Assembly: GCA_016182085.1 (NCBI GenBank)
Contig: JACOYB010000004.1
Span: 75,976 to 139,975, forward strand
Source of the DNA: Candidatus Magasanikiibacteriota bacterium
GTDB lineage: Bacteria > Patescibacteriota > Patescibacteriia > Magasanikbacterales > GWA2-37-8
Direction: 5' to 3'
DNA: 64,000 nt
Shown here: one piece after another, positions 1,452-41,311 of the stretch
Position numbering within the stretch: position 1 is the stretch's first letter
Layout: each line of letters starts with the position of its first letter
The notes under the pieces: model-generated
Told to the model about the DNA's origin: nothing
The model's database searches: none
Seen by the model: the letters and a program-made list of their open reading frames with translations, nothing else
Made by a program: the position numbers and the translations under genes

Positions 1452-2462
1452 TTGTATCGATATATTATGGTAAAAGACAATTTAGATTTTTACGAAAATC
1501 GGAAGTTAAGCGGGGATGTGTCGGTGTTGGGAGTGCCTTTGGATTTAGGCAAAGATGCCACTGGTACTCAGCTTGGCCCGGCATATATACGCAAACATGG
1601 TTTGGAAGAAATGTGCAGAACTTTGGGATTTTTTTATAAAGATTTGGGAGATATAGAATGCGCTGGTCGTGAAGCGGCGGAAATGGGAGATATAAAAGTA
1701 AAATATTTGGATGAGATAAGCAGGGTGGTAGAAAAAACCGCCCGAATCGTACGGGATGAGATAAAAATGGGCGGCCAAATGCTCGTGCTGGGCGGTGATC
1801 ATGCTGTTTCTATCGGCAGTATTTCCGGGGCATCAGTAGCTTGCGAAGGTGATCTGGGGGTAATCTGGATAGATGCCCACGGCGATATGATGACACATGA
1901 AAATACCTTATCCGGCAATATTCACGGTATGCCATCTTCGGCAGTCATGGGTCTTGGACATCACACGTTGACGGATATATTAAAGCCGGGGGCAAAGATT
2001 AAGAAGGAAAATATTATTTATATTGGCCTCAAAGATCTGGATCAGGCGGAAATAGATTTGATCCGAAAGGAAAAACTCCATGCGTTTACCATGATGGATT
2101 TGGTGCGGGAAGGTTTTGGGCCAGTAACAGAAAGTCTGTTAGATTTACAAAAACGCGTCAGTAATATCTGGGTAAGTTTGGATGTGGATTCCATAGACTT
2201 GGATTATTCGCCAGCCACGCCTATGGCTACTGAAGGCGGTTTAACCCGAAGAGAGATTTCCAATTTGACAAAATTCATTGGCAAATTAAATAAAATCGTG
2301 GGGTTAGATGTGGTTGAATTAGCGCCAGAATTGGATAAAGATGGTAAAACCGGAAAGTTGGTAATTGAACTGGTCGCGCAGCTTCTCGGATCGGATTACG
2401 GCTGGTATGCGCATTATATGAAGAACGAAGAAGAAAAGCAGGTAAAAAGAGCTGCTATTTAA
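1452..2462 (+). CDS. arginase/agmatinase/formiminoglutamase-family ureohydrolase
   Basis: Mn-binding motifs GGDHAVS, IWIDAHGDMMT and SLDVDSIDLDYSPATP. Substrate specificity cannot be determined from sequence alone. Confidence 0.78.
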   Translation: MYRYIMVKDNLDFYENRKLSGDVSVLGVPLDLGKDATGTQLGPAYIRKHGLEEMCRTLGFFYKDLGDIECAGREAAEMGDIKVKYLDEISRVVEKTARIVRDEIKMGGQMLVLGGDHAVSIGSISGASVACEGDLGVIWIDAHGDMMTHENTLSGNIHGMPSSAVMGLGHHTLTDILKPGAKIKKENIIYIGLKDLDQAEIDLIRKEKLHAFTMMDLVREGFGPVTESLLDLQKRVSNIWVSLDVDSIDLDYSPATPMATEGGLTRREISNLTKFIGKLNKIVGLDVVELAPELDKDGKTGKLVIELVAQLLGSDYGWYAHYMKNEEEKQVKRAAI

Positions 2463-2582: not shown

Positions 2583-4135
2583 TATTTACTTATTTTTTTT
2601 CGCAGGAGTTTTTCGGTCACGGTTGGATCGGCCGATCCCTCGGTAGCTTTCATGACCATGCCCTTGAGGAATTGAAGAATAGGTTCCTTGCCATTTTTAA
2701 ACTGTTCCACTTGTTGCGGATAATTTTTTATGACTTCATCAATAACTTCCGAGAGTTTTCCTTCATCGCTAATTTGTCCGTAACCTTTTTCTTCCATTAC
2801 ATGGGTTGGGTCCAGATCCACGCCGGAATCAAGCATTTCATTTAGTATCTTTTGAGCGTTGGTAGAGTTTACGCGGTTGGTATAAATAAGCGCTACTAGT
2901 TCGGCAAAGTTTTCCGGTTTTAATCTAAGAATTTTAATATTTATGCTGCGTTCCGCCATCGCGCCCATAAGCTTGCTGGTAATCCAACCGCCGGCAAGTC
3001 TGGCGAGTTGCTGTTGTTTGTTTTGTAGGATTTCGTCCGTATCTGTTTTTGATTCGCTTAGGTTATGCAGCCAGTCTACCAGTTCGCTCATGACCTTTTC
3101 TGTATAGTCGGACCAGTGAAGATCGCTGGAAAGCAGTTCGGCATCTGCATAAGAAAATCCATATTCTTCACGCAGGCGAAGCCTTTTGGCTTGGGGTAAT
3201 TCTGGCAAAGATATATCTCCGGCGATTTTTACCGGGTGAAAAGGCGGAATATCCGGTTCGGGGAAATACCTGTAATCGGCGGCTGTTTCTTTGATTCTTT
3301 GCATCACGGTTTCGCCTTTGTTGTCATCCCAGCCCCTAGTTTGCTGTTTCCAGGCTTCTCCTTTTTCCAGCATGGCGGTTTGCCTGATTATTTCAAACTC
3401 AATCGCTTTTTCCACGGCTCGGAAAGAATTAATGTTTTTTACTTCTACTTTATGATTTAGGGTATAGCCGGCGACCGGTTTTATTACTCCTTTATCGTTT
3501 ATAAATTTATTTTCTTCCTGAAGAGAAATGTTGGCCTCACAGCGCATATTACCCTTTTCCATATCGGCATCGCTGATACCCAAATATCTAAAAATTGCTT
3601 GCAGTTCTTGGGAATACATTTTGGCTTCGGCCGAGCTGGTAACATCCGGTTCGGAAACTATTTCTACCAGCGGCACACCGGCCCGGTTAAAATTCACTAA
3701 AGTATTGCCCGAAGAGTCGTGAGATAATTTAGCCGTGTCTTCCTCCAAGTGTACTCTGGTAATACCGATATGGGCCTTGTCACGATAGTTTTTGCCCGGT
3801 AAGAATTCTAAATCTATATAGCCGTGTTCGCCAATAGGCTGGTCATACTGAGAAATTTGGTAGGCTTTGGGCAGGTCCGGATAAAAATAATGTTTGCGAT
3901 CAAATTTACTTTCGGTATTTATTTGGCAGTTTAATGCCTTGGCAATTTTGGCTGCCCATTCAATTGCCGTGTGGTTTGGCACAGGCAAGGTGCCGGGGTG
4001 GGCCAAGCAGATTTCACAGACATTGGTATTGGGAGCGGCGGAAAAAGGATCGTTTTTGCACGAACAAAACATTTTGCTTTTGGTTTTAAGCTCTACGTGA
4101 ATTTCCATGCCGATTATAGGGGTGTATTTGGGCAT
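2582..4135 (-). CDS. gatB: Asp/Glu-tRNA(Asn/Gln) amidotransferase subunit B
   Basis: 517 aa. N-terminus MPKYTPIIGMEIHVELKTKSKMFCSC with the C-terminal GatB/YqeY domain. Confidence 0.9.
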   Translation of the reverse strand: MPKYTPIIGMEIHVELKTKSKMFCSCKNDPFSAAPNTNVCEICLAHPGTLPVPNHTAIEWAAKIAKALNCQINTESKFDRKHYFYPDLPKAYQISQYDQPIGEHGYIDLEFLPGKNYRDKAHIGITRVHLEEDTAKLSHDSSGNTLVNFNRAGVPLVEIVSEPDVTSSAEAKMYSQELQAIFRYLGISDADMEKGNMRCEANISLQEENKFINDKGVIKPVAGYTLNHKVEVKNINSFRAVEKAIEFEIIRQTAMLEKGEAWKQQTRGWDDNKGETVMQRIKETAADYRYFPEPDIPPFHPVKIAGDISLPELPQAKRLRLREEYGFSYADAELLSSDLHWSDYTEKVMSELVDWLHNLSESKTDTDEILQNKQQQLARLAGGWITSKLMGAMAERSINIKILRLKPENFAELVALIYTNRVNSTNAQKILNEMLDSGVDLDPTHVMEEKGYGQISDEGKLSEVIDEVIKNYPQQVEQFKNGKEPILQFLKGMVMKATEGSADPTVTEKLLRKKISK

Positions 4136-4218
4136 AATTTAGTCTTATTTATGCGTTAAGATTATCATTTTATAGTTTTTTTGGCAATTTATTTTTTACT
4201 CTTTATCCCAATTCTATA

Positions 4219-4690
4219 TCACCCCATTTTGTCAGCAAAACGGGGTGATGCCCCAAAACTGCCTCGCGGATGTACTTATGCCTCGAACTGCCATCAGCTC
4301 TGTCTCGCTTTTGTCCTGAACTCAATTGGCCGTCTATAACGGCCAATCTCAAACAGCAGGACAAATTCCTCCCGTCAAGCGGGAGGAACCGCTCACCATC
4401 ACTGTGGCCAGTTCGGTCAAAGTCCATAGGCTCGGGTATCGAACCGTTGTCCAACGTTGTCCAGGCGAACATTGGAATTATGAGGATAGCAGACAGAGAC
4501 AAACCCGAACGATTCCCTGGCGGAATCTGCCCTGTGTTTGAGCCGAGGCGAGTTCAGGGCAGAAGTGAGTGGTGAGTCCTGTCTGGCTCCGAGTAATTCC
4601 ACCGTGAGCGATTTCTTTCCACCCCCTTTCTTTTAAAAGAAAGGGGGTAAGAGGGAGATGTGTTTTTGCTGACAAAATGGGGTGATAAAG
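4219..4690. ncRNA. candidate structured non-coding RNA or MITE-like element (identity unresolved)
   Basis: GC-rich island in an AT-rich neighbourhood. Closed by 25-bp inverted repeats (atcaccccattttgtcagcaaaa at 4219 / ttttgctgacaaaatggggtgat at 4665). Nested long-range complementarity (gcctcg/cgaggc, cctgaactc/gagttcagg), perfect hairpin ccccctttcttttaaaagaaaggggg. Only short mutually overlapping ORFs without RBS. Confidence 0.3.
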
Positions 4691-4749
4691 GATTATTTTT
4701 TAACTAAAATCCTCCATAAATATGGAGGATTTTAGAATATTTTTTTTGA

Positions 4750-5511
4750 TTACATTTGTTGAGAAGGTGGAGTGGAAGGCAAAGCAGATACCGGATTCTG
4801 TTTAGCGCTATAGTATAAAATAAGCATAGCGGCTGTAGAAAGAGGTGCCACCAAAACGGTTCCAAGGGAAGTAACCACGCTTGCCACTCCGCCTTTTAAA
4901 AATTCGGTAAGCGGTAGTAGATCAACTAAGGATGCGAGGACGTAAAAGAGGGCAAGATTGATGGCGCCAAATATCACATTAGGCGCCACGATTTTCCAAG
5001 CAATAGACCACCATCGTCCAAGTACGAGCGATTTACTGGTCTTTAGGGCAGCCATGCCTTTCTGGTTCTCAAAAATCATTACATATACATAAAAGCTATA
5101 CCATACGGTAAAGATTATGCCTGGAATGAGTAGTAATAAAAACCCGCCGATAATAATTAAGCCCGAAAGCAGAGAAGTATAGATGAAAGGCCAGATTAAC
5201 GGGCTGGACAAAGAAAAGTTTTCTCTCCAGTTTGTGGTTTGTCCGGACAAAAGACCGGATAGCGCCTTTGCCATGGCAATCGTTGTCCAAATGTTAAGTA
5301 CAATGGTAGCTACGCCCACAACTGTTATAAGCAGGTTTGTAGGTAAAGAGGATTTAGGCACAATGACTTCTAAGTATAGAGAAATAATGCCCAAAAGGGA
5401 TAGTGCGACTGTAGGAAGGAACAGAAGACCCAGGTATGGGACAAGGGCTCGCCAATTTTTGATATATAAATGGAAACTATTGCTAATAATTTCCCCTGCT
5501 GATTTGAGCAT
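4750..5511 (-). CDS. polytopic membrane protein, function unknown
   Basis: 253 aa with about six predicted TM helices. No recognisable catalytic motif. Confidence 0.55.
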   Translation of the reverse strand: MLKSAGEIISNSFHLYIKNWRALVPYLGLLFLPTVALSLLGIISLYLEVIVPKSSLPTNLLITVVGVATIVLNIWTTIAMAKALSGLLSGQTTNWRENFSLSSPLIWPFIYTSLLSGLIIIGGFLLLLIPGIIFTVWYSFYVYVMIFENQKGMAALKTSKSLVLGRWWSIAWKIVAPNVIFGAINLALFYVLASLVDLLPLTEFLKGGVASVVTSLGTVLVAPLSTAAMLILYYSAKQNPVSALPSTPPSQQM

Positions 5512-5520
5512 AGGTATGAG

Positions 5521-6234
5521 TTATTTGTGAATTAGATGTTGAAATAATTTTAAACTGTCTTGTTTCATTATATCAATTTCAGTCTCGGCATTCAAGTAAT
5601 GAATTTGGGTGCCGAGTTTTGTAAAAAAGTTTTGGTAAGCTTCTGACCTGTAAATTGCGGCGGCTTTTTTTAAAAAGTCGAGTTTTTCAAAAATAGCATC
5701 ATCATTTTTCTCAAGCCTTCCGCTTATACGCGCAAAGGCCTTGTCCGGAGAAATATCCATTAATACGAGATGTTGAGGCGGGTATTTTAAAGCAAAAGCA
5801 TTGCCGGGTATTTTGGCCAAAACATCAAAAGTTAAGTTTTCAGGATCAAGTATGTGTTGGTAACAAATGGAAGTACATACTGCCCGGTCACTAATGATGG
5901 TTTTCTCATTTTCTGCAAGAGCCGGCACAATCATTTTTTTGTAAAGAATTAAACGATCCAGAGCATAAGCTTCAGCAATGGCATAGGCCGGGTAGTCGGA
6001 GTTGTTTTTGATAAATTCTTCCCGGATAACCTTGCCAATTCCGGCGCTGGAAGGTTCGTGGCTAAAAATAAAGTCACAGGAGTCTGCTTCATTAAAATCA
6101 GGGTAGCGGTTAAATTCTTTTTGGTAATCCTTTAAATCAAAAATAGTATTGCCCTGGGCTGTCAGATAGTCTTTCCAAGTTTGTACGACTGTACTTTTGC
6201 CACTACCATCAATACCGTCAATCATGATGAACAT
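5521..6234 (-). CDS. tmk: thymidylate kinase-like P-loop kinase
   Basis: N-terminal MFIMIDGIDGSGKST matches the Tmk P-loop. The ~237-aa size and the position beside folA-thyA support a thymidylate kinase call. Confidence 0.6.
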   Translation of the reverse strand: MFIMIDGIDGSGKSTVVQTWKDYLTAQGNTIFDLKDYQKEFNRYPDFNEADSCDFIFSHEPSSAGIGKVIREEFIKNNSDYPAYAIAEAYALDRLILYKKMIVPALAENEKTIISDRAVCTSICYQHILDPENLTFDVLAKIPGNAFALKYPPQHLVLMDISPDKAFARISGRLEKNDDAIFEKLDFLKKAAAIYRSEAYQNFFTKLGTQIHYLNAETEIDIMKQDSLKLFQHLIHK

Positions 6235-6235
6235 A

Positions 6236-6709
6236 CTATCTGGTATATTTTACAAAAGAAAATCCTTCGTGATCTTCTCTCCATATTTCTTTCCAAATAT
6301 TTAAATCTATGGTTGGAAAAAATACATCGCCATCCGGTTCTTGATCTATCCAGGTTATATATAATGTATCAACTTTATTAAGGGTTTGTTTGTAAATACT
6401 GGCTCCGCCGCAGACGAATACGTCCTCGTCTTTAAGAGCATTCCAGGCTTCGTCTAGTGAATAAAAAACACGCACGCCTTCAGGCGCTTTAAAATTTGTG
6501 TCTAGAGTTATTACAACTGTTTGTCGGCCCGGCAGGGGCTTGCCCAAATATCCCAAAATGGACTCAAAGGTTTTTTGTCCCATCAGACAGGTTTTGCCAA
6601 GAGTAGTTTTTCTAAAATACTGAAAATCCTCGGGAACATTCCATGGGATTTTGTTATCCTTGCCGATACAATTGTTTTTGGCCACGGCCGCGATAAGAGA
6701 GAAGCTCAT
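6236..6709 (-). CDS. folA: dihydrofolate reductase
   Basis: MSFSLIAAVAKNNCIGKDNKIPWNVPEDFQYF...GKTCLMGQKTFESI...PLPGRQTVVITL. Start taken at the internal Met, since the upstream extension in the ORF track overlaps thyA. The ATG lies 1 nt after the thyA stop. Confidence 0.85.
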   Translation of the reverse strand: MSFSLIAAVAKNNCIGKDNKIPWNVPEDFQYFRKTTLGKTCLMGQKTFESILGYLGKPLPGRQTVVITLDTNFKAPEGVRVFYSLDEAWNALKDEDVFVCGGASIYKQTLNKVDTLYITWIDQEPDGDVFFPTIDLNIWKEIWREDHEGFSFVKYTR

Positions 6710-6710
6710 A

Positions 6711-7640
6711 TTAAACAGCGATCGGTGCTTTAATAGGTGGATCTGGGTTGTAGTCAACAAGTTCAAAATCTTCAAATTTAAAACCAAAGATATCTTTTAT
6801 ATCCGGATTAATTTTCATTTGAGGTAATTTTTTGGGAGTTCTAGATAGCTGTTCTTTCACTTGCTCAAAGTGATTGCGGTAAATATGAACATCACCAAAT
6901 GTATGAATAAATTCCCCAGGTTCCAGCCCGCTTACCTGCGCGATCATCATCGTAAACAAAGCGTATGATGCGAGGTTAAATGGTACGCCTAAGAAAACAT
7001 CCGCACTTCTTTGGTAAAGCTGGCAAGACAGTTTGCCATTGATAACCATGAATTGAAATAATGTATGGCATGGTGGTGGAGCGCTGTGGTGAGCACGGAT
7101 TAGTGTTTCAATTTCACCTACATTCCAGCCATTGATGATAATGCGGCGTGAAGTTGGATCGTTTTTTATTAAATCAAGAACAAGGTTTATTTGGTTAATT
7201 TCTTTACCATCTTTGGTACCCCATTTAACCCACTGTTTGCCATAAATCGGTCCTAGATCACCCCATTGTTTAGCAAACTGTTCGTCAGATTTCATGCTGC
7301 CGATAAATTTTTCAAATTCAACATTCCAGTTTTCTGAGTAGCGCGGAAAATCTTTTTCTAAATTATTTTTTTTAAGATAGTCGGCAAAAGCCCACTCATT
7401 CCAGATTTTTACGTCATTGTCTATCAAAAATTTAATGTTGGTATCACCACGTAAAAACCAAAGCAGTTCGTAAATAATTGCTTTGAGGTGGACTTTTTTG
7501 GTAGTCAGTAGAGGAAAGCCGTCAGCTAGATTTGCTCGGTATTGATATCCAAAAACACTGCGGGTACCTACACCAGTCCGGTCATTCTTATCTGTTCCGT
7601 TTTCATATAAGTGCCTTAACAGATCAAGGTATTGCTTCAT
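6711..7640 (-). CDS. thyA: thymidylate synthase (ThyA type)
   Basis: 309 aa. Contains catalytic PPCH and the [18 protein letters not shown]-type core. Confidence 0.95.
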
Positions 7641-7676
7641 AGTTACAAACTATTATTTAGTTTTATACCTTAGTAT

Positions 7677-7865
7677 TTAATTGTCTGTATTCTCATTTTC
7701 GTCCTCTGTAGCTACGCGATCAATCGCATTATCAACATCTTCATTTGATATTTCTTGTAAATCTATTTTAGCTTTAGCTTCCGCAATTTTTTCATCCCAT
7801 TCCCTAGCTTCTTCCTCGCTAATGATTCTTTCCGTGCTTGGTGGCAAAGATTTTTTATTATCCAT
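7677..7865 (-). CDS. small acidic hypothetical protein
   Basis: 62-aa highly acidic ORF between thyA and dut on the same strand. No motif recognised. Confidence 0.3.
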   Translation of the reverse strand: MDNKKSLPPSTERIISEEEAREWDEKIAEAKAKIDLQEISNEDVDNAIDRVATEDENENTDN

Positions 7866-7871
7866 ATTAAT

Positions 7872-8192
7872 TTAGTTTTCATCCTCCTCATCTTCTAAAG
7901 ATATAAGATCGTTTTCGGAGAGTTCGGTTTCTCCTGTGCCGTCAGCAAACTGTTTTTCGAGGGTATTTTCGTATTCTGCAGGGCTGAGCGGCTTTTGTCC
8001 CGAAACCTTCCTTTTTTCGTTTACCTTTTCTAATTCCCTTAACATTTGTTCATCTTTTTCATCGTGAACCCCAGGTAAGTAACCCTCTGGTTTTCTTGCT
8101 CTTTTTTCTTGTTCCATATATATACGATTTAAGTTAGATCCCGCTAAACGGGACGAGTTAATTAATAAACTATTATTGTCCGGTAGTTCCAA
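7872..8192 (-). CDS. acidic hypothetical protein
   Basis: 106 aa (or 81 aa from the internal Met), D/E-rich, co-directional within the nucleotide cluster. Its 3' end overlaps the dut start region. Confidence 0.35.
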   Translation of the reverse strand: MELPDNNSLLINSSRLAGSNLNRIYMEQEKRARKPEGYLPGVHDEKDEQMLRELEKVNEKRKVSGQKPLSPAEYENTLEKQFADGTGETELSENDLISLEDEEDEN

Positions 8193-8604
8193 ATCCGCCT
8201 CGGCTATCTTTTTTCATTTCACTTACCTCTTCCCACTCGCCCTGGTCTACGCGCACAAACGCCGCTTGGCCCATGCGTTCGCCTTTGGCTACAGGCGCTT
8301 CCTGGTCGGTAAAGTTGTAAATCTGGAGCATTATTTCGTCTTTTTCGCCGTGGTAATCTTGGTCAATTATACCAATCCCATGGGGTACAAGCAAGCCCTT
8401 TTTTTTGGGGGTGCTAGAACGGGTGACTACCGTAAGCATATAGCCTTTGGGGATTTCTACAATTATATTTGTTGGAATAAGCCCCAAAGATTTGGGAGCG
8501 ATAGTCATATCTACTCGGCTATACAAATCAAAAGCCACGGCGCCGGTAGTTTGATATTCGGGCAGGGGTAGAGAAGTGTCTATTCTTTTGATTTTAACTT
8601 TCAT
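8173..8604 (-). CDS. dut: dUTP diphosphatase
   Basis: dUTPase motifs AVAFDLYS, TRSSTPKKKGLLVPHGIGIIDQDYHGE and the C-terminal RGGFGTTG. Start set at MKVKIKR. Confidence 0.9.
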   Translation of the reverse strand: MKVKIKRIDTSLPLPEYQTTGAVAFDLYSRVDMTIAPKSLGLIPTNIIVEIPKGYMLTVVTRSSTPKKKGLLVPHGIGIIDQDYHGEKDEIMLQIYNFTDQEAPVAKGERMGQAAFVRVDQGEWEEVSEMKKDSRGGFGTTGQ

Positions 8605-8609
8605 AAAAT

Positions 8610-8981
8610 TTATGCGCACCCGCGATGCAGCGGTCTTGTTGGCAGATATGGGATGTTAAAAATAGTGTAGAGCCTAACAGTACAAAATCCACAATAATCT
8701 TGCATTCCGGTAGTCTGTGTAATTTCCATTCGTTGAGTTATTAATCTGCCAAACTCTAAAAAAGGGCCAGGTGCTCCACTATATAACATTGACCAACAGC
8801 CTTGTAATTCGGTATCCCCCAGTATTTTTCCTGAGGAGTTGTCTACGTAAACATGGCCACCAACTACTCCGATAAAATTATTATTTTTTGAAGCCTTGTG
8901 TGATATAGCCCTTCCCACAATAAAAGTTAGCAGTAAAATAACTGCCAAGGCTAGTAGTGAGTGTTTAACAACTTTTTTCAT
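8610..8981 (-). CDS. small secreted or membrane-anchored hypothetical protein
   Basis: Signal/TM segment MKKVVKHSLLALAVILLLTF followed by a Gly/Cys-containing domain. Unknown function. Confidence 0.4.
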   Translation of the reverse strand: MKKVVKHSLLALAVILLLTFIVGRAISHKASKNNNFIGVVGGHVYVDNSSGKILGDTELQGCWSMLYSGAPGPFLEFGRLITQRMEITQTTGMQDYCGFCTVRLYTIFNIPYLPTRPLHRGCA

Positions 8982-8985
8982 GTAA

Positions 8986-9570
8986 TTAATTTTGATATTT
9001 AGATAATAGGCTATCCAGATTTTTTTGCAGGTCTTCCATACTACCGTTATTATCCAAATTCTCAGCAGCATGGCTTATTACTTCGGGGATAGACATTTCG
9101 GTGGAACGTTTATGGTCTTCCATAAATTGTTCAAAAGTTTTGTTGGCATCATCCGGGTTTTCTCTTCTTTGTATTATTCTAGAGTATCTGGTGTGTGGGT
9201 CGGCAAAAATTTCTACCAAGACAAAATTTGGCAATTTGGAAAGATAAACAATATCGGCCATACGTCTTATACCTTCTACAACAATAATATTGTTAGAATC
9301 AGCGGCCGCATCTCCGGCAATAGTTTTGGCCATTATATCTTCGCCAAAAGTAGCGCGGATAGCTTCGGACATTTTGATTAAATTATCGCGGTTATGTTCT
9401 AGATGAATACGATCAAGCAAATCCCGCAAAATGGTAGAGAACCGATAAGTAGTGGCGCCATATTTTTGTTGGTAATAAGCAGCCACTGTACCTTTACCGC
9501 TGGCCATGAGGCCGGTAAAACCTAAAATTACTTTGCTATTGGTTTGCATAAGCTTCAACTTTATCTTCAA
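8986..9570 (-). CDS. P-loop nucleotide/nucleoside monophosphate kinase-like protein
   Basis: Walker A GFTGLMASGKGT near the N-terminus, ~190 aa. Resembles dNMP-kinase/CoaE-like small kinases. Exact start (M1 or M8) uncertain. Confidence 0.5.
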   Translation of the reverse strand: MKIKLKLMQTNSKVILGFTGLMASGKGTVAAYYQQKYGATTYRFSTILRDLLDRIHLEHNRDNLIKMSEAIRATFGEDIMAKTIAGDAAADSNNIIVVEGIRRMADIVYLSKLPNFVLVEIFADPHTRYSRIIQRRENPDDANKTFEQFMEDHKRSTEMSIPEVISHAAENLDNNGSMEDLQKNLDSLLSKYQN

Positions 9571-10045
9571 AATAATCTAATTCTATTCCAACTTGCCTAA
9601 ACATCTCTTCGCTTTCGGAACCGGCGTGGTATCTTTTTTCGCACACGACTCTTTTCACACTGGCGTTAATTATCATTTTGGCGCATACGGCACACGGAGT
9701 CATGCGGCAATAAACGGTAGCGCCATCAATCGGCACACCCAGCTTGGCAGCTTGTACGATAGCATTTTGTTCGGCATGAGCTGTGCGTACGCAATGTTGG
9801 CTTTGGTGTCCGTCTTCGTGAGTAACCGTTTTCATTTGGTGCCCAATTTCATCGCAGTGAGCCATGCCTTTGGGGGCGCCAGCGTAGCCGGTAACCAAAA
9901 TTTGTCTATCTTTGGCAATTACCGAACCAACTCGGCCTCGGTCGCAAGTAGCGCGTTTGGCTACCGCCCGACAGACTTCCATAAAGTATTCGTCCCAGGT
10001 AGGGCGAACGTAGGGCTGGTTAGAAGTTTCTTCTGACATACACAT
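9536..10045 (-). CDS. dCMP deaminase (cytidine/deoxycytidylate deaminase zinc-binding family)
   Basis: HAEQNAI...PCAVCAKMII zinc-binding motifs. 169 aa. Confidence 0.85.
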   Translation of the reverse strand: MCMSEETSNQPYVRPTWDEYFMEVCRAVAKRATCDRGRVGSVIAKDRQILVTGYAGAPKGMAHCDEIGHQMKTVTHEDGHQSQHCVRTAHAEQNAIVQAAKLGVPIDGATVYCRMTPCAVCAKMIINASVKRVVCEKRYHAGSESEEMFRQVGIELDYFEDKVEAYANQ

Positions 10046-10113: not shown

Positions 10114-11133
10114 TTAAAGTCCGTGAGATTTTTTGTACTTTTCCGCCTCCAAAATTATTTTTCTGGCGACCGATAATGTATAAGCCGGACGAGTACCCAG
10201 CGCGGTTTCGTTGCACAACATAATACCGTCGGCGCCATCAAGCACGATGTTGGTAAGGTCGGAAATATCCGAACGCAGAGGAATATAATTGTAAATCGTG
10301 CCTTCTAGAATTTGAGAAGAAATAATGACCGGTTTTTTATATTTTTTAATAGTTTTAATCGCATCTTTTTGGAAAATTCCCAATCGTTCAAATGGCATAT
10401 CCAGACCCAGCTTGCCGCGGTTGAGCAGAACCAAATCATAAAAATCATCTTGGCAAATGGCTTCTAAATTTTCTTTGGCCAACCGGCTTTCAATGCGAGC
10501 GATAATTTTTGGCCGCCAGCTAAAGTTGGATAACTGTTTGATTTTTTCGTTTACCGCCGGACTGATAAACGGAATGGCTACATATTCGGGAGAAATTTCT
10601 TCCAGCTTGGCCAGGACTTCCTGGCAGCGGTTTATATAGGCTTCGTTTTCGGTATTTTGCGCAATATGAATGCTGAGTGTTGACTGTAAAATGCCCTCGT
10701 TTAAAGCCTTAACTTTTACGGTTTTATCATTGATAATTTCGGTTATTTGTAAGGCGATTTTTCCGTGGTCAATGCTGGTAATTTGGTTGATATACACCTG
10801 GTTGCCAAGTTCGGGAATATGCACATATACATGATCATCAACCATAGGCTGGTCATGATACGCGGAGTGTAAAATAAGCTCTTCATTTTCCATAACCGTG
10901 CGTGGCTGAAGTGGCCCGGCCAGGCGAATTTGGTTGGAAGGAAGGTTGACAATAATTTTGGCCGAAGAATTTAGTTCATCAATTACTTTCATGCCGATTT
11001 TAATGCGGTCTATGGTATTTTCAGTCGGGCCATACGAAAAACTGTACCGCAAGGCATCTGCTCCGGCCAAAATAATTTTTCTGATTTTATCTTCGGAAAA
11101 GTTATTGATGCCAACGGTAGCAATAATGAACAT
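10114..11133 (-). CDS. pyk: pyruvate kinase, short form lacking C-terminal regulatory domain
   Basis: IIATVGINNFSEDKIRKIILAGADALRYSFSYG and NRGKLGLDMPFERLGIFQKDAIKTIKKYKKPVIISSQILEGT...LDGADGIMLCNETALG align with the pyruvate kinase barrel and active-site regions. Confidence 0.72.
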   Translation of the reverse strand: MFIIATVGINNFSEDKIRKIILAGADALRYSFSYGPTENTIDRIKIGMKVIDELNSSAKIIVNLPSNQIRLAGPLQPRTVMENEELILHSAYHDQPMVDDHVYVHIPELGNQVYINQITSIDHGKIALQITEIINDKTVKVKALNEGILQSTLSIHIAQNTENEAYINRCQEVLAKLEEISPEYVAIPFISPAVNEKIKQLSNFSWRPKIIARIESRLAKENLEAICQDDFYDLVLLNRGKLGLDMPFERLGIFQKDAIKTIKKYKKPVIISSQILEGTIYNYIPLRSDISDLTNIVLDGADGIMLCNETALGTRPAYTLSVARKIILEAEKYKKSHGL

Positions 11134-11149
11134 ATAGTATATTTTATTT

Positions 11150-11287
11150 TGTCATTCCCGCCGAAGCGGGAATCTAGTATCCGGTTGGGGTTGTCTCTGG
11201 ATTCCCGCTTCGGCGGGAATGACAGGTGTAGATCCCTCCGCTGTGGTCGGGATGACAATGAAACAATCCCGCTTGTGGCGGGACTGC
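11150..11287. repeat. palindromic hairpin-pair repeat element, copy A1 (two units)
   Basis: tgtcattcccgccgaagcgggaatc...gattcccgcttcggcgggaatgaca, then agatccctccgc...ggtcgggatgacaatg plus hairpin tcccgcttgtggcggga. Same family as 30902, 32057, 36567, 45190 and 45780. Confidence 0.85.
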
Positions 11288-11294
11288 ATTATTT

Positions 11295-11969
11295 TTAGGC
11301 GCTAATTTTTATGGAAGGACCCATGGCAGAGCAGACAGTTACGTTTTTCAGGAATGTTCCTTTGGCTGTGGCCGGTTTGGCTTTGCGCAACGCGTCCAAG
11401 AGCACACCGATATTTTCTTTTAATTTTTGTTCACCGAAACTGATCTTGCCTACGGCTTGGTGGACATTGCCACCGTCGTCATTTTTGAAAGTTACCTTAC
11501 CGGTTTTTAGATCGGCGATCATTTTTTTAAGATTGGTGCCAACGGTATCGCTTTTTGGGTTAGGCATCAAACCTTTTGGACCCAAGACTCTGGCGACTCC
11601 GGCTAGTTTAGGCATCATGTCCGGAGTAGTTACGGCCACTTCAAATGCAATTTTACCGGTATCTTTTATTTTTTTGATTTCTTCTTCTCCGTATACGAAA
11701 TCGGCTCCGGCTTCTTTTGCTTCCTTTTCTTTTTCTGGAGAAACGAAGGCGGCTACGGTTTTGGTTTTACCCGTACCGTGCGGCAACACAATAGTTGCGC
11801 GAACTTGCTGTTCGGTCTTTTTTGTATTGATGCCCAAATTGGCATGCAATTCCACGGTGGCGTCAAATTTTACGCCGGAAGTTTCCGCGAGTAGTTTTAC
11901 GGCCTCATCCAAGGAATAGACTTTATTTTTTTCTACCTTGGCGCTGCTCGCTGCCATTCTTTTTGACAT
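11295..11969 (-). CDS. rplA: 50S ribosomal protein L1
   Basis: 224 aa. MSKRMAASSAKVEKNKVYSLDEAVKLL...GKISFGEQKL typical of L1. It is not adjacent to rplK here. Confidence 0.93.
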   Translation of the reverse strand: MSKRMAASSAKVEKNKVYSLDEAVKLLAETSGVKFDATVELHANLGINTKKTEQQVRATIVLPHGTGKTKTVAAFVSPEKEKEAKEAGADFVYGEEEIKKIKDTGKIAFEVAVTTPDMMPKLAGVARVLGPKGLMPNPKSDTVGTNLKKMIADLKTGKVTFKNDDGGNVHQAVGKISFGEQKLKENIGVLLDALRKAKPATAKGTFLKNVTVCSAMGPSIKISA

Positions 11970-32056: not shown

Positions 32057-32186
32057 TGTCATTCCCCTAACAAGGGGAATCCAGTATTCGATCGGGTCGA
32101 CTGGATTCCCGCTTTGGCGGGAATGACAGTTGGGACAGAGATCCCTCCGCGGAGTTTATACCCTTTAGGGTGGTCGGGATGACAAT
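32057..32186. repeat. palindromic hairpin-pair repeat element, copy A3 (two units)
   Basis: tgtcattcccctaacaaggggaatccagtattcg...ctggattcccgctttggcgggaatgaca, then agatccctccgcggag...ggtcgggatgacaat. Lies between rlmH and trpS. Confidence 0.85.
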
Positions 32187-38119: not shown

Positions 38120-41100
38120 ATGATCAGAAGCATTAAACCGAAAACAATTTTGATCCTTGGTTCCGGCGCTTTGCAAATCGGACAAGCCGGTGAGTTTGAT
38201 TATTCCGGCAGCCAGGCGATAAAGGCGTTAAAAGAAGATGGAATTTTTACGGTGCTTATAAATCCCAATATTGCCACCATCCAAACCTCGGAGCATTTGG
38301 CGGATAAAGTATATTTCTTACCGGTGAATGTTTCTTTTGTGGAACAAATAATTATCAAAGAAAAACCCGATGGTATTTTACTTGGTTTTGGCGGGCAGAC
38401 CGCTTTAAATGTTGGAGTGCAATTGTATGAACAAGGAATTTTAGAGAAATATAACGTAAAAGTGTTGGGTACATCGGTAGAAACCATTAAAGATACCGAA
38501 GATAGACAGCTCTTTGCCGATAAAGTTACGGAAGTTGGGTTAAAAGTGGCTAGAAGCATTACAGCTGCTACTACTGACGAAGCCTTACAAGCTGCCGAAA
38601 AAATCGGTTATCCGGTCATGTGCCGCGTAGCGTACGCGCTTGGCGGCTTGGGTTCGGGAATCGTGCAAAACAAAGAAGAGTTAAAAGAAAAAACCGATAG
38701 AGCCTTTGCGTTTACAAATCAAGTGTTAATAGAGGAATGTTTGTATGGCTGGAAAGAAGTAGAATACGAAATTGTGCGCGATGCCTACGATAATTGCATT
38801 ACCACGTGTTCCATGGAAAATTTTGATCCGATGGGTATTCATACGGGCGACAGTATTGTGGTGGCACCAGTGCAGACTTTAACTGCTAAAGAGCATTTTA
38901 ATTTGCGGGCAATCGGACTTAAACTTATCAGACATTTGGGAGTTGTGGGAGAGTGCAATATTCAATACGCGCTCGACCCGCGTTCGGGAGATTACCGGAT
39001 TATAGAAGTAAACGCGCGGCTTAGCCGTAGTTCGGCGCTGGCTTCCAAGGCTACCGGCTATCCGCTCGCGTTTGTGGCAACCAAACTTGCGCTGGGTTAT
39101 AGCTTAAATGAAGTAGAAAATATTATTACCAAAGAAACTTCCGCCTGTTTTGAACCGGCGCTTGATTATATTACCCTCAAATTTCCACGCTGGGATCTGC
39201 AAAAATTTGAGCAGGTAAATAAAGTGCTGGGTACGGAAATGAAATCCGTAGGCGAAGTGATGGCCATTGGCCGCAGTTTTGAAGAAGTATTGCAAAAGGC
39301 CGTGCGCATGTTGGATATTGGAATGAGCGGACTCGTAGAAGACAGCTTGCAATTTTTGGATTTAGATAAGGAAATTAGCCAGCCAACGGATAAAAGAATT
39401 TTTGCAATTGCCCGGGCTTTAAAACAGGGGTATACGGTAGATAGAATTCACGAACTCTCCAAAATTGACCGTTGGTTTTTGCATAAACTAAAAAATATTG
39501 TTGATCTGGACAATAGTTTAAAAAACTTTACTCTGGAAACTTTGCCGCTGGACGTGCTAAAAACCGTCAAACAAGCGGGATTTTCCGATAAACAGATAGC
39601 CGAAGTGATTGGCTGCGCCAGTGAACAAGTGCGCGCAAAGCGAAAAGAGCTTGGCGTATTGCCGGTGGTGAAACAGATTGATACGTTGGCGGCTGAATAC
39701 CCGGCAAAAACTAACTATTTATATCTTACGTATCATGGACAGGAAAATGACGTGATGCCGTCTACAGAAAAACAGGTCATAGTGCTCGGCAGCGGACCAT
39801 ATCGTATCGGCTCTTCGGTAGAATTTGATTGGTGCGGCGTTAATTCGCTTATGACGCTGCAAAAATGCGGATATAAAACGATCATGATAAATTGTAATCC
39901 GGAAACTGTAAGTACGGACTACGATGTTTCGGATCAATTATATTTTGAAGAATTAAGCCTGGAAAAGATTTTAGATATTTACGAATGGCAGAAGCCAATA
40001 GGGGTGGTGGTTTCTATGGGCGGGCAGGTGCCAAATAATCTGGCTTTAAAACTGCATAAGGCCGGCGTAAATATTTTGGGCACGTCACCGATGCAAATAG
40101 ATAATGCGGAAAGCCGGCAGAAATTTTCTCAAATTTTAGATGGTTTAGGCATAGATCAGCCCGAATGGAAGGAACTTACCGATTTAGCTTCGGCCAAAGA
40201 ATTTGCCGAGCGGGTAGGGTATCCGGTGCTTGTGCGCCCCAGCTATGTGCTCTCTGGCGCGGCTATGAGCATATCCTATAGCAAAGATGATTTGGAATTA
40301 TTTCTCAAAAAAGCCGTTGATATAAACAAAGAACATTCGGTGGTAATTAGCAAGTTTATTACTAAAGCCAGGGAAATAGAGCTGGACGGCGTGGCAAATA
40401 ATGGCGAACTGTTTTGTTATGCCATTTCCGAACATTTGGAAAATGCCGGGGTGCATTCCGGCGATGCTACGCTCGTGTTTCCGCCGCAAAAAACCTATTT
40501 GGAAACCACCAGAAGAATAAAGAAGATCGCTAAAGAAGTAGCTAAAGCCCTAGAAATTACCGGCCCGTTTAATATGCAGCTGATTGCCAAGGATAATGAT
40601 ATTAAAGTAATTGAATGTAATTTGCGCGCCTCCCGCAGTTTTCCATTTGTGTCAAAAGTGTTGAAAATAAATTTTGTAGATATTGCCACACGACTCATGA
40701 TGGGCCAGTCCGTGCCAAAATTAAGCCGTTCGTCTTTTGATTTAGACTATGTGGGAGTGAAAGCTTCGCAATTTTCTTTTACCAGGCTGAAGGGTTCAGA
40801 TCCGGTAACGCGGGTGGAAATGAGTTCTACCGGTGAAGTAGCTTGTTTGGGCGATAATTTAAACGAAGCATTTTTAAAGAGTATAATTTCCACCGGTTTT
40901 AACGTGGAACCAAAATCGGTGTTATTGTCCATTGGCTCGGCTGATAAAAAACTGGCATTTTTGGAAGAAGCGCGCGCCTTGCAAGATATGGGTATAAAGA
41001 TTTATGCTACTAAGGGCACCGGAACTTTTTTACAGAAAAATAATATTCAAACTGAAATTTTGGAGTGGGCGGAGAGCAGCCAGCCTAGCGTGATGTCTTA

Positions 41101-41311
41101 TTTATCTGACAAGATGATTGATTTAGTCGTAGCTATTCCAAATAATACGGAGAAGGTTGGTATCAGTAACGGCTATTTGGCCAGAAGAAAAGCCATAGAT
41201 CAAAATATTTCTTTGATCACCAATTTAGAATTCGCGCGCCGGTATGTAAAAGCTATTAGTAAATTTAAAATGAGTGATTTGAAAATAAAAAGTTGGGATG
41301 AATATGTGTAG
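38120..41311 (+). CDS. carB: carbamoyl-phosphate synthase large subunit
   Basis: 1063 aa. Duplicated ATP-grasp halves (ILILGSGALQIGQAGEFDYSGSQA ... VIVLGSGPYRIGSSVEFDWCG) and the MGS-like C-terminus. Confidence 0.95.
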   Translation: MIRSIKPKTILILGSGALQIGQAGEFDYSGSQAIKALKEDGIFTVLINPNIATIQTSEHLADKVYFLPVNVSFVEQIIIKEKPDGILLGFGGQTALNVGVQLYEQGILEKYNVKVLGTSVETIKDTEDRQLFADKVTEVGLKVARSITAATTDEALQAAEKIGYPVMCRVAYALGGLGSGIVQNKEELKEKTDRAFAFTNQVLIEECLYGWKEVEYEIVRDAYDNCITTCSMENFDPMGIHTGDSIVVAPVQTLTAKEHFNLRAIGLKLIRHLGVVGECNIQYALDPRSGDYRIIEVNARLSRSSALASKATGYPLAFVATKLALGYSLNEVENIITKETSACFEPALDYITLKFPRWDLQKFEQVNKVLGTEMKSVGEVMAIGRSFEEVLQKAVRMLDIGMSGLVEDSLQFLDLDKEISQPTDKRIFAIARALKQGYTVDRIHELSKIDRWFLHKLKNIVDLDNSLKNFTLETLPLDVLKTVKQAGFSDKQIAEVIGCASEQVRAKRKELGVLPVVKQIDTLAAEYPAKTNYLYLTYHGQENDVMPSTEKQVIVLGSGPYRIGSSVEFDWCGVNSLMTLQKCGYKTIMINCNPETVSTDYDVSDQLYFEELSLEKILDIYEWQKPIGVVVSMGGQVPNNLALKLHKAGVNILGTSPMQIDNAESRQKFSQILDGLGIDQPEWKELTDLASAKEFAERVGYPVLVRPSYVLSGAAMSISYSKDDLELFLKKAVDINKEHSVVISKFITKAREIELDGVANNGELFCYAISEHLENAGVHSGDATLVFPPQKTYLETTRRIKKIAKEVAKALEITGPFNMQLIAKDNDIKVIECNLRASRSFPFVSKVLKINFVDIATRLMMGQSVPKLSRSSFDLDYVGVKASQFSFTRLKGSDPVTRVEMSSTGEVACLGDNLNEAFLKSIISTGFNVEPKSVLLSIGSADKKLAFLEEARALQDMGIKIYATKGTGTFLQKNNIQTEILEWAESSQPSVMSYLSDKMIDLVVAIPNNTEKVGISNGYLARRKAIDQNISLITNLEFARRYVKAISKFKMSDLKIKSWDEYV

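Follow-up and report, generated by a model that had tools for sequence, protein, structure and literature searches.

Organization of the locus

The window, by which we mean the whole 64-kb stretch of DNA analyzed here, carries on its minus strand a tightly packed group of genes for dCMP deaminase, a P-loop kinase, dUTPase, ThyA, DHFR and dTMP kinase. Interspersed among these are an 81-aa and a 62-aa acidic ORF and a membrane or secreted 123-aa ORF. The original prediction placed a cluster of six nucleotide-metabolism genes between positions 5521 and 10045; all six are present there and their families are confirmed by profile matches, but the co-directional block that is conserved reaches beyond these limits, from rplA (11295-11969) through a membrane protein gene (4750-5511). 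In the order of the block, the features are as follows.

11295-11969, minus strand: rplA (ribosomal protein L1; Pfam Ribosomal_L1 on an identical Logan contig), conserved upstream neighbor of the block
11136-11285, no strand: rplA/pyruvate kinase spacer with hairpin units TCCCGC-N4-GCGGGA
10114-11133, minus strand: pyruvate kinase, barrel domain only, 339 aa, without the C-terminal domain (PF00224, 146 bits)
9536-10039 (alternative start 10045), minus strand: dcd, dCMP deaminase (PF00383, 87.7 bits; HAE and PCxxC motifs)
8986-9549, minus strand: kin187, P-loop (d)NMP-kinase-like, UPF0200/SSO1041 type (AAA_17; NCBIfam PRK08356; phrog_139)
8610-8981, minus strand: sec123, 123-aa ORF, basic, four Cys, N-terminal hydrophobic anchor or signal
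8173-8604, minus strand: dut, dUTPase, dUTP -> dUMP + PPi (TIGR00576, 108.5 bits, cut-off 102.55)
7872-8117, minus strand: ac81, 81 aa, pI 4.4, net charge -12 (homologue in the relative L083)
7677-7865, minus strand: ac62, 62 aa, pI 4.1, net charge -12 (homologue in L083)
6711-7640, minus strand: thyA, canonical folate-dependent thymidylate synthase, 309 aa (TIGR03284, 442 bits; full-length Pfam match; PPCH)
6236-6709, minus strand: folA, DHFR (PF00186, 171 bits)
5521-6234, minus strand: tmk, dTMP kinase (TIGR00041, 95.3 bits, cut-off 83.25)
4750-5511, minus strand: multi-pass membrane protein (weak match to UPF0259 / GPDPase_memb); the block ends with this conserved gene
4704-4735, no strand: perfect 15+15-nt palindromic hairpin (repeat I11), just past the last gene

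Intergenic gaps read from the sequence range from -14 to 74 nt between the pyruvate kinase and membrane protein genes, and this spacing suggests that the block is a single transcription unit; a promoter scan scored no better than shuffled sequence. The folA ATG lies 1 nt past the thyA stop, as had been noted, tmk begins 1 nt past the folA stop, and there is a 14-nt overlap between the start of kin187 and the stop region of dcd. The transcription unit probably ends at the hairpin at 4704-4735. At the other end, the rplA/pyruvate kinase spacer contains a 28-nt inverted repeat (11150-11177 / 11197-11224) and may work in termination or attenuation, or may be a small repeat element that was inserted; L083 differs in having only a plain terminator-like hairpin here.

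A route from dCMP and dUTP to dTTP

Family assignments show a putative pathway in which Dcd and Dut supply dUMP from dCMP and dUTP, respectively, ThyA turns dUMP into dTMP while FolA recycles dihydrofolate, and Tmk phosphorylates dTMP to dTDP, in agreement with the dCMP -> dUMP -> dTMP -> dTDP route proposed from the gene set. FolA would regenerate tetrahydrofolate from the dihydrofolate that ThyA produces, and folA is missing in L093 and L094, where ThyX fills the synthase slot. Dcd and Dut are 95% and 93% identical in amino acid sequence to their L083 counterparts, with dN/dS values of 0.07 and 0.085.

The barrel-only pyruvate kinase, which heads the block, covers PF00224 model positions 6-325 of 328 and matches TIGR01064 only at positions 5-339 of this 476-position model. 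It is kept between rplA and dcd in L083, L085, L086, L089, L091-L094, L108, L155, L157 and L159. Because pyruvate kinase has a precedent as an NDP kinase in mycoplasmas (PMC6609329), we regard it as a candidate for the dTDP -> dTTP step, using PEP. The kin187 protein scores 63.8 bits against PRK08356 (below the cut-off), and matches the phrog_139 dNMP kinase (3.5e-13) and PDB entries 3LW7/3H0K (E=1.6e-11); it would phosphorylate other (d)NMPs from salvage. The terminal membrane protein, with homologues 3' of tmk in L083, L085, L086, L090, L093, L097, L104, L108, L115, L150, L155 and L158, may be linked to precursor uptake.

The overlap of dcd and kin187 raises another reading, in which the pair is a split anti-phage dCTP deaminase of the AvcD / 'dCTPase' defense type and not two housekeeping enzymes. 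Both proteins match PADLOC PDLC02373 (kin187 at model positions 152-311, 4.1e-10; Dcd at 335-484, 1.5e-22) and both match NCBIfam NF041025, but the latter scores are 64 and 21 bits, far under the cut-off of 400, and the gene order is opposite to that in the fused defense protein. Dcd is moreover stronger on ordinary dCMP deaminase models (phrog_174, 150 bits; ComEB-like, 115 bits, under the equivalog cut-off), and the pair sits inside a conserved dTTP operon with dN/dS of 0.04-0.07. We thus give a defense role very little credence. Adjacency of dcd and a kinase gene is a widespread arrangement in the Patescibacteria.

A native chromosomal block

The original prediction left open whether the cluster is a laterally acquired, phage-like module or an unusually organized native operon. 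Comparison with relatives favors a native operon, and an ordinary one: the scaffold adjoining rplA recurs in many Patescibacteria, with L1 on the same strand upstream in 15 ThyA-anchored and about 35 dut-anchored loci, and Saccharibacteria, Komeilibacteria and other Patescibacteria have L1-linked blocks of dcd, kinase, dut, tmk, thyA and folA. The complete scaffold is found in L083 and L085-L094, and the cluster is thus conserved in relatives. This recurrence shows an inherited scaffold of rplA-pyk-dcd-kinase-dut-[small acidic ORFs]-thymidylate synthase-folA-tmk-membrane protein.

Under the alternative, the entire cluster would be a phage-derived nucleotide-metabolism module inserted in the chromosome. 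Every enzyme family of the cluster is also found in phages (PHROG matches), kin187 has its weak match to the phrog_139 dNMP kinase, and thyA is not vertically inherited within the clade. However, the block is flanked by housekeeping genes, with no phage hallmark genes or integrase found in its flanks, and its composition is typical of the window: GC is 0.35-0.48 and GC3 0.25-0.45, against window backgrounds of 0.433 +/- 0.041 and 0.415 +/- 0.062. In-frame codon log-likelihood ratios likewise fall in the window background range, so that the proposed check of codon use finds the cluster to be like the rest of the window, with sec123 as the atypical member. The ThyA sequence itself, suggested as one that might group with phage homologues, does not do so; the best phage and IMG/VR sequences are at most 55-57% identical to it, whereas among the matches listed those from Saccharibacteria, Peribacteria and DPANN MAGs are 70-74% identical, and a simple neighbor-joining tree, drawn without support values, places it among sequences of these three groups. 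Furthermore, kin187 has no phage match by tblastn and ac81 is absent from the phage collections searched. Because the rplA-linked scaffold recurs, the composition is typical, and phage ThyA proteins are more distant than cellular ones, we conclude that the block is native and not phage-like, and the phage-module explanation is largely refuted.

Allele replacement within a conserved scaffold

Conservation of the scaffold does not extend to the alleles that occupy it. In the nearest relatives the synthase slot holds either a 290-aa ThyA that is 32-38% identical to the window ThyA, or ThyX, and Pfam assigns the protein at this slot to ThyA in L085 and to ThyX in L093 and L094. Relative to L083, dS is 3.6 for thyA and 0.3-0.45 for neighboring genes, and nucleotide identity of 92-97% gives way to 76-85% in precisely the stretch made up of the 3' part of ac62, the thyA gene and the 5' part of folA; over kin187 it is 80-87%. 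Per-gene identities (%) between the window and L085 are similarly uneven, at 90 for L1, 88 for pyruvate kinase, 28 for dcd, 74 for the kinase, 87 for dut, 38 for thyA, 83 for folA and 55 for tmk, and with L115 they are 61 for dut, 82 for folA and 87 for tmk.

These comparisons show the window thyA to be a xenologous allele that displaced, in the same slot, the usual 290-aa synthase of the clade, which most near relatives have, and the thyA, dcd, kinase and tmk slots to have evidently been overwritten in place by divergent alleles. The donor pool of these alleles appears to be common to CPR bacteria and DPANN archaea. Vertical descent of all six genes, which the original prediction had set against a phage-like origin, does not hold, as the alleles at thyA, dcd, the kinase and tmk are discordant. 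Displacement between ThyA and ThyX is frequent (PMC2826268), and thyA has been described both as part of the minimal Patescibacteria repertoire and as a candidate for horizontal gene transfer (PMC12455944).

The acidic ORFs are genuine genes

The two strongly acidic, same-strand small ORFs noted earlier are present, and a search of all frames of the 64-kb window for ORFs of 45-130 aa in which D+E make up at least 25% of residues finds no others. The size range of 81-106 aa given for the larger one can be narrowed: since L083 does not conserve the extension to 106 aa from a TTG, the 81-aa call is to be preferred, and an independent gene caller run on Logan contigs makes the same 81-, 62- and 123-aa calls. 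Both ORFs are intact in L083, where ac81 has 89% amino acid identity at equal length (dN/dS 0.31) and ac62 has 72% identity and indels that leave the frame intact (dN/dS 0.35).

At least one small acidic ORF (pI 4.1-5.7) follows dut in 13/13 loci in which the post-dut DNA is sequenced, these being the window, L083 and L085-L094, which form the near-relative subclade, and L115; in more distant relatives dut abuts the synthase gene with a gap of 2-15 nt. In a database of 7363 ORFs, phmmer finds reciprocal matches of ac81 to the same-position ORF in L091 (E about 1e-3) and of ac62 to that in L086 (E 5e-4 to 1e-3), and nearly all matches of the acidic ORFs are to same-position ORFs; homology to the distant ones rests on E values of about 1e-3 and short motifs in compositionally biased sequences. 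The shared motifs are LPGV and A-[DE]-GTGE-x-EL-[ST]-E-x-D-[LI] for ac81 and WDxKIAExK and ISNEDIDxA for ac62, which belongs to the same positional family.

The original prediction allowed that such ORFs might be spurious, in which case the dut-thyA interval would be a variable spacer or recombination scar whose AT-/GA-rich sequence is open by chance. ORF length and number do vary between relatives, the ORFs sit at a recombination breakpoint, Shine-Dalgarno sites are absent from the genome, and homologues of ac81 and ac62 were not found outside a narrow clade, with none for ac81 among 1.84e9 representative proteins. An interval open by chance is nonetheless improbable, given a frame that is open in every one of the sequenced intervals, dN/dS of 0.17-0.42 in nine comparisons (0.05-0.16 for dut), peptide motifs that are kept while synonymous sites are saturated, a codon log-likelihood ratio that for ac81 is positive in the called frame only, and the rarity of such ORFs across six frames. 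The acidic ORFs are therefore real genes under purifying selection, conserved by position and partly by sequence, and constitute a family confined to the clade, whose members are small, acidic and for the most part disordered. Their evolution is several times faster than that of the neighboring genes, yet they stay between dut and any type of synthase. Taking the locus as a whole, we consider it probable that it is a native chromosomal dTTP operon of a tiny-genome Candidatus Magasanikbacteria (Patescibacteria/CPR), with exchanged slots and real acidic genes. The window comes from a MAG of this group, and protein matches bearing the group's name carry the locus tags HYT15_00670, HYT15_00675 and HYT15_00685.

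Possible roles of the acidic proteins

An AlphaFold2 model of ac81 has helices at 20-39 and 46-58 with low-confidence tails, a predicted helical hairpin with disordered ends, and that of ac62 has two short helices, again with low-confidence tails. By analogy with the acidic phage proteins Ocr and Ugi, the original prediction had offered both as DNA mimics or regulators, and as mimics they might inhibit uracil-DNA glycosylase or restriction enzymes (Ugi, p56 or Ocr type), a function for which a place beside dut and thyA would serve the control of uracil handling. Strong negative charge, small size and proximity to the dUTPase gene fit this idea, but the likeness to Ocr and Ugi is one of charge, without a shared family, phage homologue or fold. 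Neither protein matches a Pfam, NCBIfam, PHROG or PADLOC family or a PDB sequence, and Foldseek searches of the models against the PDB gave nothing at E<=0.001 and no match to Ugi, Ocr or ArdA. The models are helical and disordered and not compact, charge-patterned folds, the context is chromosomal and housekeeping and not that of a mobile element, and rapid turnover with shuffled motifs suits linear-motif proteins better than shape mimics. We have thus rejected folded DNA mimicry as very unlikely.

Our best guess, held with low confidence, is that the acidic proteins are disordered protein-binding regulators or adaptors; ac81 and ac62 may act through short linear motifs, with targets in the dTTP pathway or in DNA precursor use. 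The family is not required for the pathway, since most Patescibacteria with the same operon lack acidic ORFs.

This same absence would fit genes that are real but unrelated to dTTP metabolism, young clade-specific hitch-hikers on an essential, strongly expressed operon, such as factors associated with the membrane or the nucleoid. Some homologues start with an amphipathic N-terminus of the MFFGKK/MFGRR type that is not obviously enzyme-related, and sec123 and a GxxExxY-type ORF are unrelated genes inserted in the operon. Hitch-hiking deserves some weight but seems to us unlikely, as ThyA-to-ThyA' and ThyA-to-ThyX replacements have left the ORFs in place between dut and the synthase gene and there are no paralogues elsewhere within the window.

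The sec123 ORF has no family match in profile searches of Pfam, NCBIfam, PHROG and PADLOC and is absent from L083 and L085-L094. A single homologue (69% amino acid identity) lies at the same kinase/dut junction in L084, and by this distribution sec123 is a variable insertion at that junction.

Gene content and extent of the block

Six nucleotide-metabolism genes had been predicted on the minus strand, and all of them are recovered in the ORF list and in profile searches against Pfam, NCBIfam and PHROGs. The co-directional block extends beyond the region originally flagged, with rplA (whose product is L1) and a barrel-only pyruvate kinase gene (PK) upstream and a membrane-protein gene downstream.

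Features of the block in window coordinates, with profile scores and their cut-offs
11295-11969, (-), rplA; upstream end of the co-directional block
10114-11133, (-), PK, barrel-only pyruvate kinase; upstream part of the block
9536-10039, (-), dcd, dCMP deaminase; PF00383, 87.7 bits (cut-off 25)
8986-9549, (-), kin187, P-loop kinase; AAA_17, NCBIfam PRK08356, phrog_139 dNMP kinase
8610-8981, (-), sec123, basic 123-aa ORF with four Cys and an N-terminal hydrophobic segment; between kinase and dut
8173-8604, (-), dut, dUTPase; TIGR00576, 108.5 bits (cut-off 102.55)
7872-8117, (-), ac81, acidic 81-aa ORF; between dut and thyA
7677-7865, (-), ac62, acidic 62-aa ORF; between dut and thyA
6711-7640, (-), thyA, ThyA; TIGR03284, 442 bits (cut-off 108)
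6236-6709, (-), folA, DHFR; PF00186, 171 bits
5521-6234, (-), tmk, dTMP kinase; TIGR00041, 95.3 bits (cut-off 83.25)
4750-5511, (-), multi-pass membrane protein, UPF0259 / GPDPase_memb-like; downstream end of the block
4704-4735, perfect palindromic hairpin after the membrane-protein gene

Intergenic gaps within the block range from -14 to 74 nt; as predicted, and as read directly from the sequence, folA starts 1 nt past the thyA stop, and tmk starts 1 nt past the folA stop. The dcd translation contains the zinc-binding HAE and PCxxC motifs, and its ComEB match scores 115 bits, under the equivalog cut-off of 219. An independent gene caller agrees on the same calls in identical Logan contigs, and exact protein matches, encoded on a contig of 410 kb, carry the Candidatus Magasanikbacteria locus tags HYT15_00670/00675/00685. 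In at least 12 related loci the membrane-protein gene is conserved as the gene that closes the block, and a link of its product to precursor uptake is possible. No Shine-Dalgarno-like motif lies between -18 and -4 in 44 of the 50 long ORFs of the window, and the genome appears to be largely SD-independent. A promoter consensus scan of the block gave matches no commoner than in shuffled sequence.

A native operon linked to rplA

The original prediction left two origins open, a laterally acquired phage-like module or a native operon, and these differ in the synteny, composition and affinities expected. A ThyA-anchored scan using one genome per species, with matches listed from outside the window's own lineage, returned at least 80 loci, and L1 lies upstream on the same strand in at least 15 of those listed; in several Patescibacteria (L009, L010, L014, L025, L027, L034 and L059) L1 is followed by co-oriented dcd, kinase(s), dut, tmk, thyA and folA. 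A dut-anchored metagenome scan returned graded relatives, the nearest being the closest relative L083 together with L085-L094 (L1 75-98% and dut 79-93% identical), all of which retain the full scaffold rplA-PK-dcd-kinase-dut-[small ORFs]-thymidylate synthase-folA-tmk-membrane protein. The GC content, GC3 and in-frame codon log-likelihood ratio of the cluster fall inside the window background, the outliers being ac62 (GC3 0.25) and sec123, whose codon use is atypical.

Searches of phage sequences point the same way. The best phage identity for ThyA is 55% in GenBank phages and 57% in IMG/VR, as against 70-74% for cellular CPR and DPANN MAGs among the matches listed, and tblastn of kin187 against phages gave no match. 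We found no phage or mobile-element genes or boundaries near the block, which is flanked by gatB, arginase, rplA, a sigma factor gene and the like, and no tRNA or integrase adjoining it; the sole RNA gene that Rfam identifies in the window is a distant tRNA-Asn, and the window otherwise carries housekeeping genes (gatB, arginase, proS, tgt, carB, uvrD, fusA). Because of the rplA-linked synteny, the background composition, the cellular-closest ThyA and the absence of kin187 from the phages searched, we conclude that the block is a native operon and reject phage import.

The cluster is thus an unremarkable housekeeping operon, well organised and of a type widespread in Patescibacteria. Its enzymes and chemistry are those of known bacterial thyA-folA units and pyrimidine operons (thyA, folA, tmk, dut, dCMP deaminase/comEB), with which it also shares the adjacency and probable translational coupling of thyA and folA, a widely documented arrangement; CPR folA genes are functional (PMC11974145). 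Unlike those units, it places the entire route in one rplA-anchored co-directional block, adds a barrel-only PK, a UPF0200-type kinase and a membrane protein, and is interrupted by clade-specific acidic ORFs.

Displacement of thymidylate synthase in place

A native origin does not imply simple vertical descent of every gene, and a check of ThyA upheld its non-phage affinity and not its vertical inheritance. Identity to the window varies greatly from gene to gene. In L085 it is 90% for L1, 88% for PK, 28% for dcd, 74% for the kinase, 87% for dut, 38% for thyA, 83% for folA and 55% for tmk; L089 has 86% for dcd and 48% for the kinase, and L115 has 61% for dut, 87% for tmk and 82% for folA.

The synthase slot is occupied in most near relatives by a 290-aa ThyA type that is 32-38% identical to the window ThyA (for example, L085 7039-7911), and in L093 (7081-8709) and L094 (5947-7395) by a two-domain ThyX, with folA absent; the 309-aa ThyA of the window is common only to L083 among near relatives. 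Relatives with swapped synthase types have L1 75-90% identical, and the dut and folA/tmk flanks are 77-90% identical around a synthase that is either the 32-38% identical ThyA or ThyX. In a neighbor-joining tree sampled from the ThyA matches listed, the window ThyA falls among sequences from Saccharibacteria, Peribacteria and other Patescibacteria and from contigs labelled Nanoarchaeia/Woesearchaeota, away from those of the L1-closest relatives. Read from these comparisons, the operon is a per-gene mosaic with gene displacement in place at the synthase slot.

Some exchange is seen even against L083. Nucleotide identity drops from 92-97% to 76-85% across 7800-6575 (the 3' part of ac62, thyA and the 5' part of folA) and is 80-87% across kin187 (8986-9560), and dS for thyA is 3.6, compared with 0.3-0.45 for neighbouring genes; these two sharply bounded low-identity tracts indicate recent allelic replacement by recombination.

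The closest ThyA sequences among the matches listed (66-74%; L003, L011, L013, L015, L017) include MAG contigs labelled Nanoarchaeia/Woesearchaeota. Since the matches were listed from outside the window's own lineage, the 74% identity to a Nanoarchaeia-labelled contig is a lower bound for the closest ThyA. The affinities suggest a ThyA allele pool common to CPR bacteria and putative DPANN archaea.

That thymidylate synthases ThyA and ThyX displace each other is already known (Stern et al. 2010, PMC2826268; Filee et al. 2023, PMC9931769), and displacement of thyA has been proposed in Patescibacteria (PMC12455944). As in those cases, close lineages here hold ThyA, a second ThyA type or ThyX, and folA is lost where ThyX is present. 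The difference is that the exchange is visible in one operon slot between orthologous flanks, at L1 identities of 75-90%, and that the ThyA allele appears to come from a pool shared with DPANN-labelled MAGs. We regard this unusually fine-scale view of synthase displacement in place as moderately new; with three synthase types in one slot among near relatives, it offers a clean example of essential-gene replacement.

Two acidic mini-proteins beside dut

The two strongly acidic small ORFs of the original prediction are present, each with a net charge of -12, a pI of 4.1-4.4 and 30-32% D+E, and a check of all six frames across the 64-kb window finds no other ORF of 45-130 aa whose D+E content reaches 25%. 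Both occur in the same order in L083, where ac81 is 89% identical with zero indels and ac62 is 72% identical with frame-preserving indels. Their dN/dS values against L083 are 0.31 (ac81) and 0.35 (ac62), with 0.01-0.09 for the enzymes; seven more pairwise comparisons of acidic ORFs at this position gave 0.17-0.42, with 0.05-0.16 for dut. Judged by positional conservation, these dN/dS values and the frame-preserving indels, ac81 and ac62 are real genes and not spurious calls. A 106-aa version of ac81 was rejected: it requires a TTG extension running into dut, and the sequence ahead of the ATG is unconserved, with indels in L083.

The window, L083, L085-L094 and L115 have one to three small ORFs after dut wherever this region is sequenced, at least one of them acidic (pI 4.1-5.7). 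In the more distant L097, L100, L104, L108, L148, L157 and L158, only 2-15 nt separate dut from the synthase gene, which marks the insertion as derived and confined to a narrow clade. A search for homologues of the acidic ORFs succeeded at this position in relatives and failed to reach any wider family. Against the 7363 ORFs of the fetched loci, each positional ORF matches almost only others at the same position; ac81 pairs reciprocally with one in L091 (E about 1e-3) and ac62 with one in L086 (E 5e-4 to 1e-3), and those of L086, L087, L088 and L091 are mutually linked, as separately are those of L089, L090, L092 and L094. Short motifs recur among the acidic members, namely [EG][YL]LPGV, GSKPE[IL]K[KM]P, WD-x-KIAE-x-K, IS[ND][EK][DE]ID-x-A, and A[DE]GTGE-x-EL[ST]E-x-D[LI] followed by an acidic C-terminus, and some homologues have an N-terminal MFFGKK or MFGRR.

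Beyond these relatives the searches were negative. Scans of Pfam, NCBIfam, PHROGs and PADLOC placed ac81, ac62 and sec123 in no family, and a Pfam scan of six homologues from relatives gave no match. A word-indexed search of 5.8e9 proteins returned only self and one relative for each acidic ORF; an ac81 profile run with HMMER against 1.84e9 representatives returned only two compositional matches, on long proteins; and an IMG/VR scan for ac81 found none. Iterated HMMs of two subgroups did not enlarge the family at E<1e-3, and ac81 has no significant similarity to an 85-aa ORF after dut in L084. BLASTP finds no similarity between ac81 and ac62, which are thus not detectable paralogues. An orphan family of predicted disordered acidic mini-proteins fixed inside an essential operon is in our view moderately new.

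Candidate roles of the acidic mini-proteins

By analogy with Ocr and Ugi, the acidic ORFs had been proposed as DNA mimics, and the comparison holds only for charge. Like the phage mimics Ugi, p56 and Ocr, ac81 and ac62 are small and strongly negative; they differ from them in sequence and predicted fold, in their chromosomal housekeeping context, and in being predicted helical and disordered with short shuffled motifs. AF2 models (pLDDT 71, from two-sequence alignments and so of modest confidence) show short helical hairpins with low-confidence, probably disordered tails and not a compact mimic fold; PDB sequence and profile searches gave no match, and Foldseek against the PDB returned nothing at E<=0.001, neither Ugi nor Ocr. 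With no family, viral, PDB or Foldseek match the analogy comes down to charge, and a Ugi-like mimic is very improbable.

Given that they are real genes, ac81 and ac62 could be disordered, motif-based binders that modulate pathway enzymes or pass products to replication, a tentative reading put forward because they stay beside dut through all three synthase replacements, whichever of ThyA, the second ThyA type or ThyX fills the adjacent slot. In its main rival, also doubtful, both are hitch-hikers of recent origin whose role is unrelated. A non-functional spacer, less likely than a hitch-hiker and scarcely probable, would have to accommodate dN/dS values well below one and frame-preserving indels.

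The binder reading can be made more specific. Sml1, Spd1 and Dif1 are small disordered eukaryotic regulators of dNTP synthesis that target ribonucleotide reductase, and ac81 and ac62 would resemble them in being small, disordered, fast-evolving, motif-based and tied to dNTP supply, with no homology between the two groups. That the positional acidic ORFs form an undescribed bacterial class of disordered short-linear-motif proteins regulating or scaffolding thymidylate/dNTP supply, an analogue of Sml1/Spd1, is unlikely; if true, such regulation would be new for bacteria, and otherwise the region amounts to no more than a well-organised housekeeping operon. In either case the acidic mini-proteins offer a concrete, testable instance in which small disordered proteins of recent origin have become fixed in an essential operon.

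Predicted route to dTTP

Family assignments agree with the dCMP -> dUMP -> dTMP -> dTDP route that had been proposed. Dcd and Dut would supply dUMP, which ThyA would methylate while FolA recycles dihydrofolate, and Tmk would yield dTDP. The final step to dTTP could be taken by the operon-encoded PK, with kin187 presumably phosphorylating other salvaged (d)NMPs. PK has 339 aa and no C-terminal regulatory domain, covering only positions 5-339 of the 476-position PK model, and is conserved between rplA and dcd in relatives, which makes it a candidate NDP-kinase substitute inside the dTTP operon by analogy with ndk-less mycoplasmas, in which PK acts as a nucleoside-diphosphate kinase (Pollack et al. 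2002, as reported in PMC6609329). As there, a reduced genome has PK at hand for (d)NDP -> (d)NTP; unlike there, PK lacks the C-terminal domain and is encoded in the dTTP operon.

The kin187 translation has the P-loop GLMASGKGT and aligns over residues 7-180 with PDB 3LW7 and 3H0K (E about 1.6e-11), as expected of the UPF0200 / SSO1041 AdkA-like P-loop kinases; phage dNMP kinases (phrog_139) are the other comparison family. It differs from those kinases in being fixed beside a dCMP deaminase in Patescibacteria. CPR bacteria are believed to depend on scavenged precursors, and the block shows one CPR lineage wiring a complete predicted dCMP/dUTP -> dTTP route into a ribosomal-gene-linked operon, possibly with its own NDP-kinase substitute.

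The dcd and kin187 genes overlap by 14 nt. Two models of the anti-phage dCTP deaminase, PADLOC PDLC02373 and NCBIfam NF041025, match dcd in their deaminase portion and kin187 in their kinase portion. Assignment to this defence system (AvcD, dCTPase) was rejected both by score, with NF041025 scores of 64.3 and 21.3 bits, far below its cut-off of 400, and only partial PDLC02373 matches, and by architecture, since the defence type is one polypeptide with the kinase-like part before the deaminase and here there are two genes, deaminase first. Possibly the fused defence enzyme arose from a housekeeping pair such as this one.

sec123, repeats and other features

The sec123 gene lies precisely at the junction of the kinase stop and the dut start. 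L083, in which that stop and start are 1 nt apart, lacks the gene, as do L085-L094; a homologue with 69% amino acid identity occupies the same junction in the more distant L084 (149-514), whose dut is 73% identical, and L089 has a different, GxxExxY-like ORF there. This distribution suggests either repeated loss or lateral insertion at one junction.

Two repeat structures were noted. The rplA-PK spacer (11136-11285) contains hairpin units TCCCGC-N4-GCGGGA and a 28-nt inverted repeat (11150-11177 / 11197-11224), and the L083 spacer has a plain terminator-like hairpin only; with a third unit at 32107-32122 the window has 3 matches, against 0.1 expected by chance, and one candidate for the spacer repeat is a small element of the REP or MITE type. 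A stretch of 423 nt, apparently non-coding and situated between gatB and the membrane-protein gene, is flanked by 31-nt inverted repeats (4210-4240 / 4664-4694, 94% complementary); Rfam gave no credible match in the 4100-4800 stretch, and the element could be a MITE or an unknown RNA.

Elsewhere in the window are genes for a full-length carbamoyl-phosphate synthase large subunit (38120-41311, plus strand) and an arginase-family protein (1452-2462, plus strand), so that this reduced genome has retained, at a minimum, the first step common to pyrimidine and arginine synthesis.
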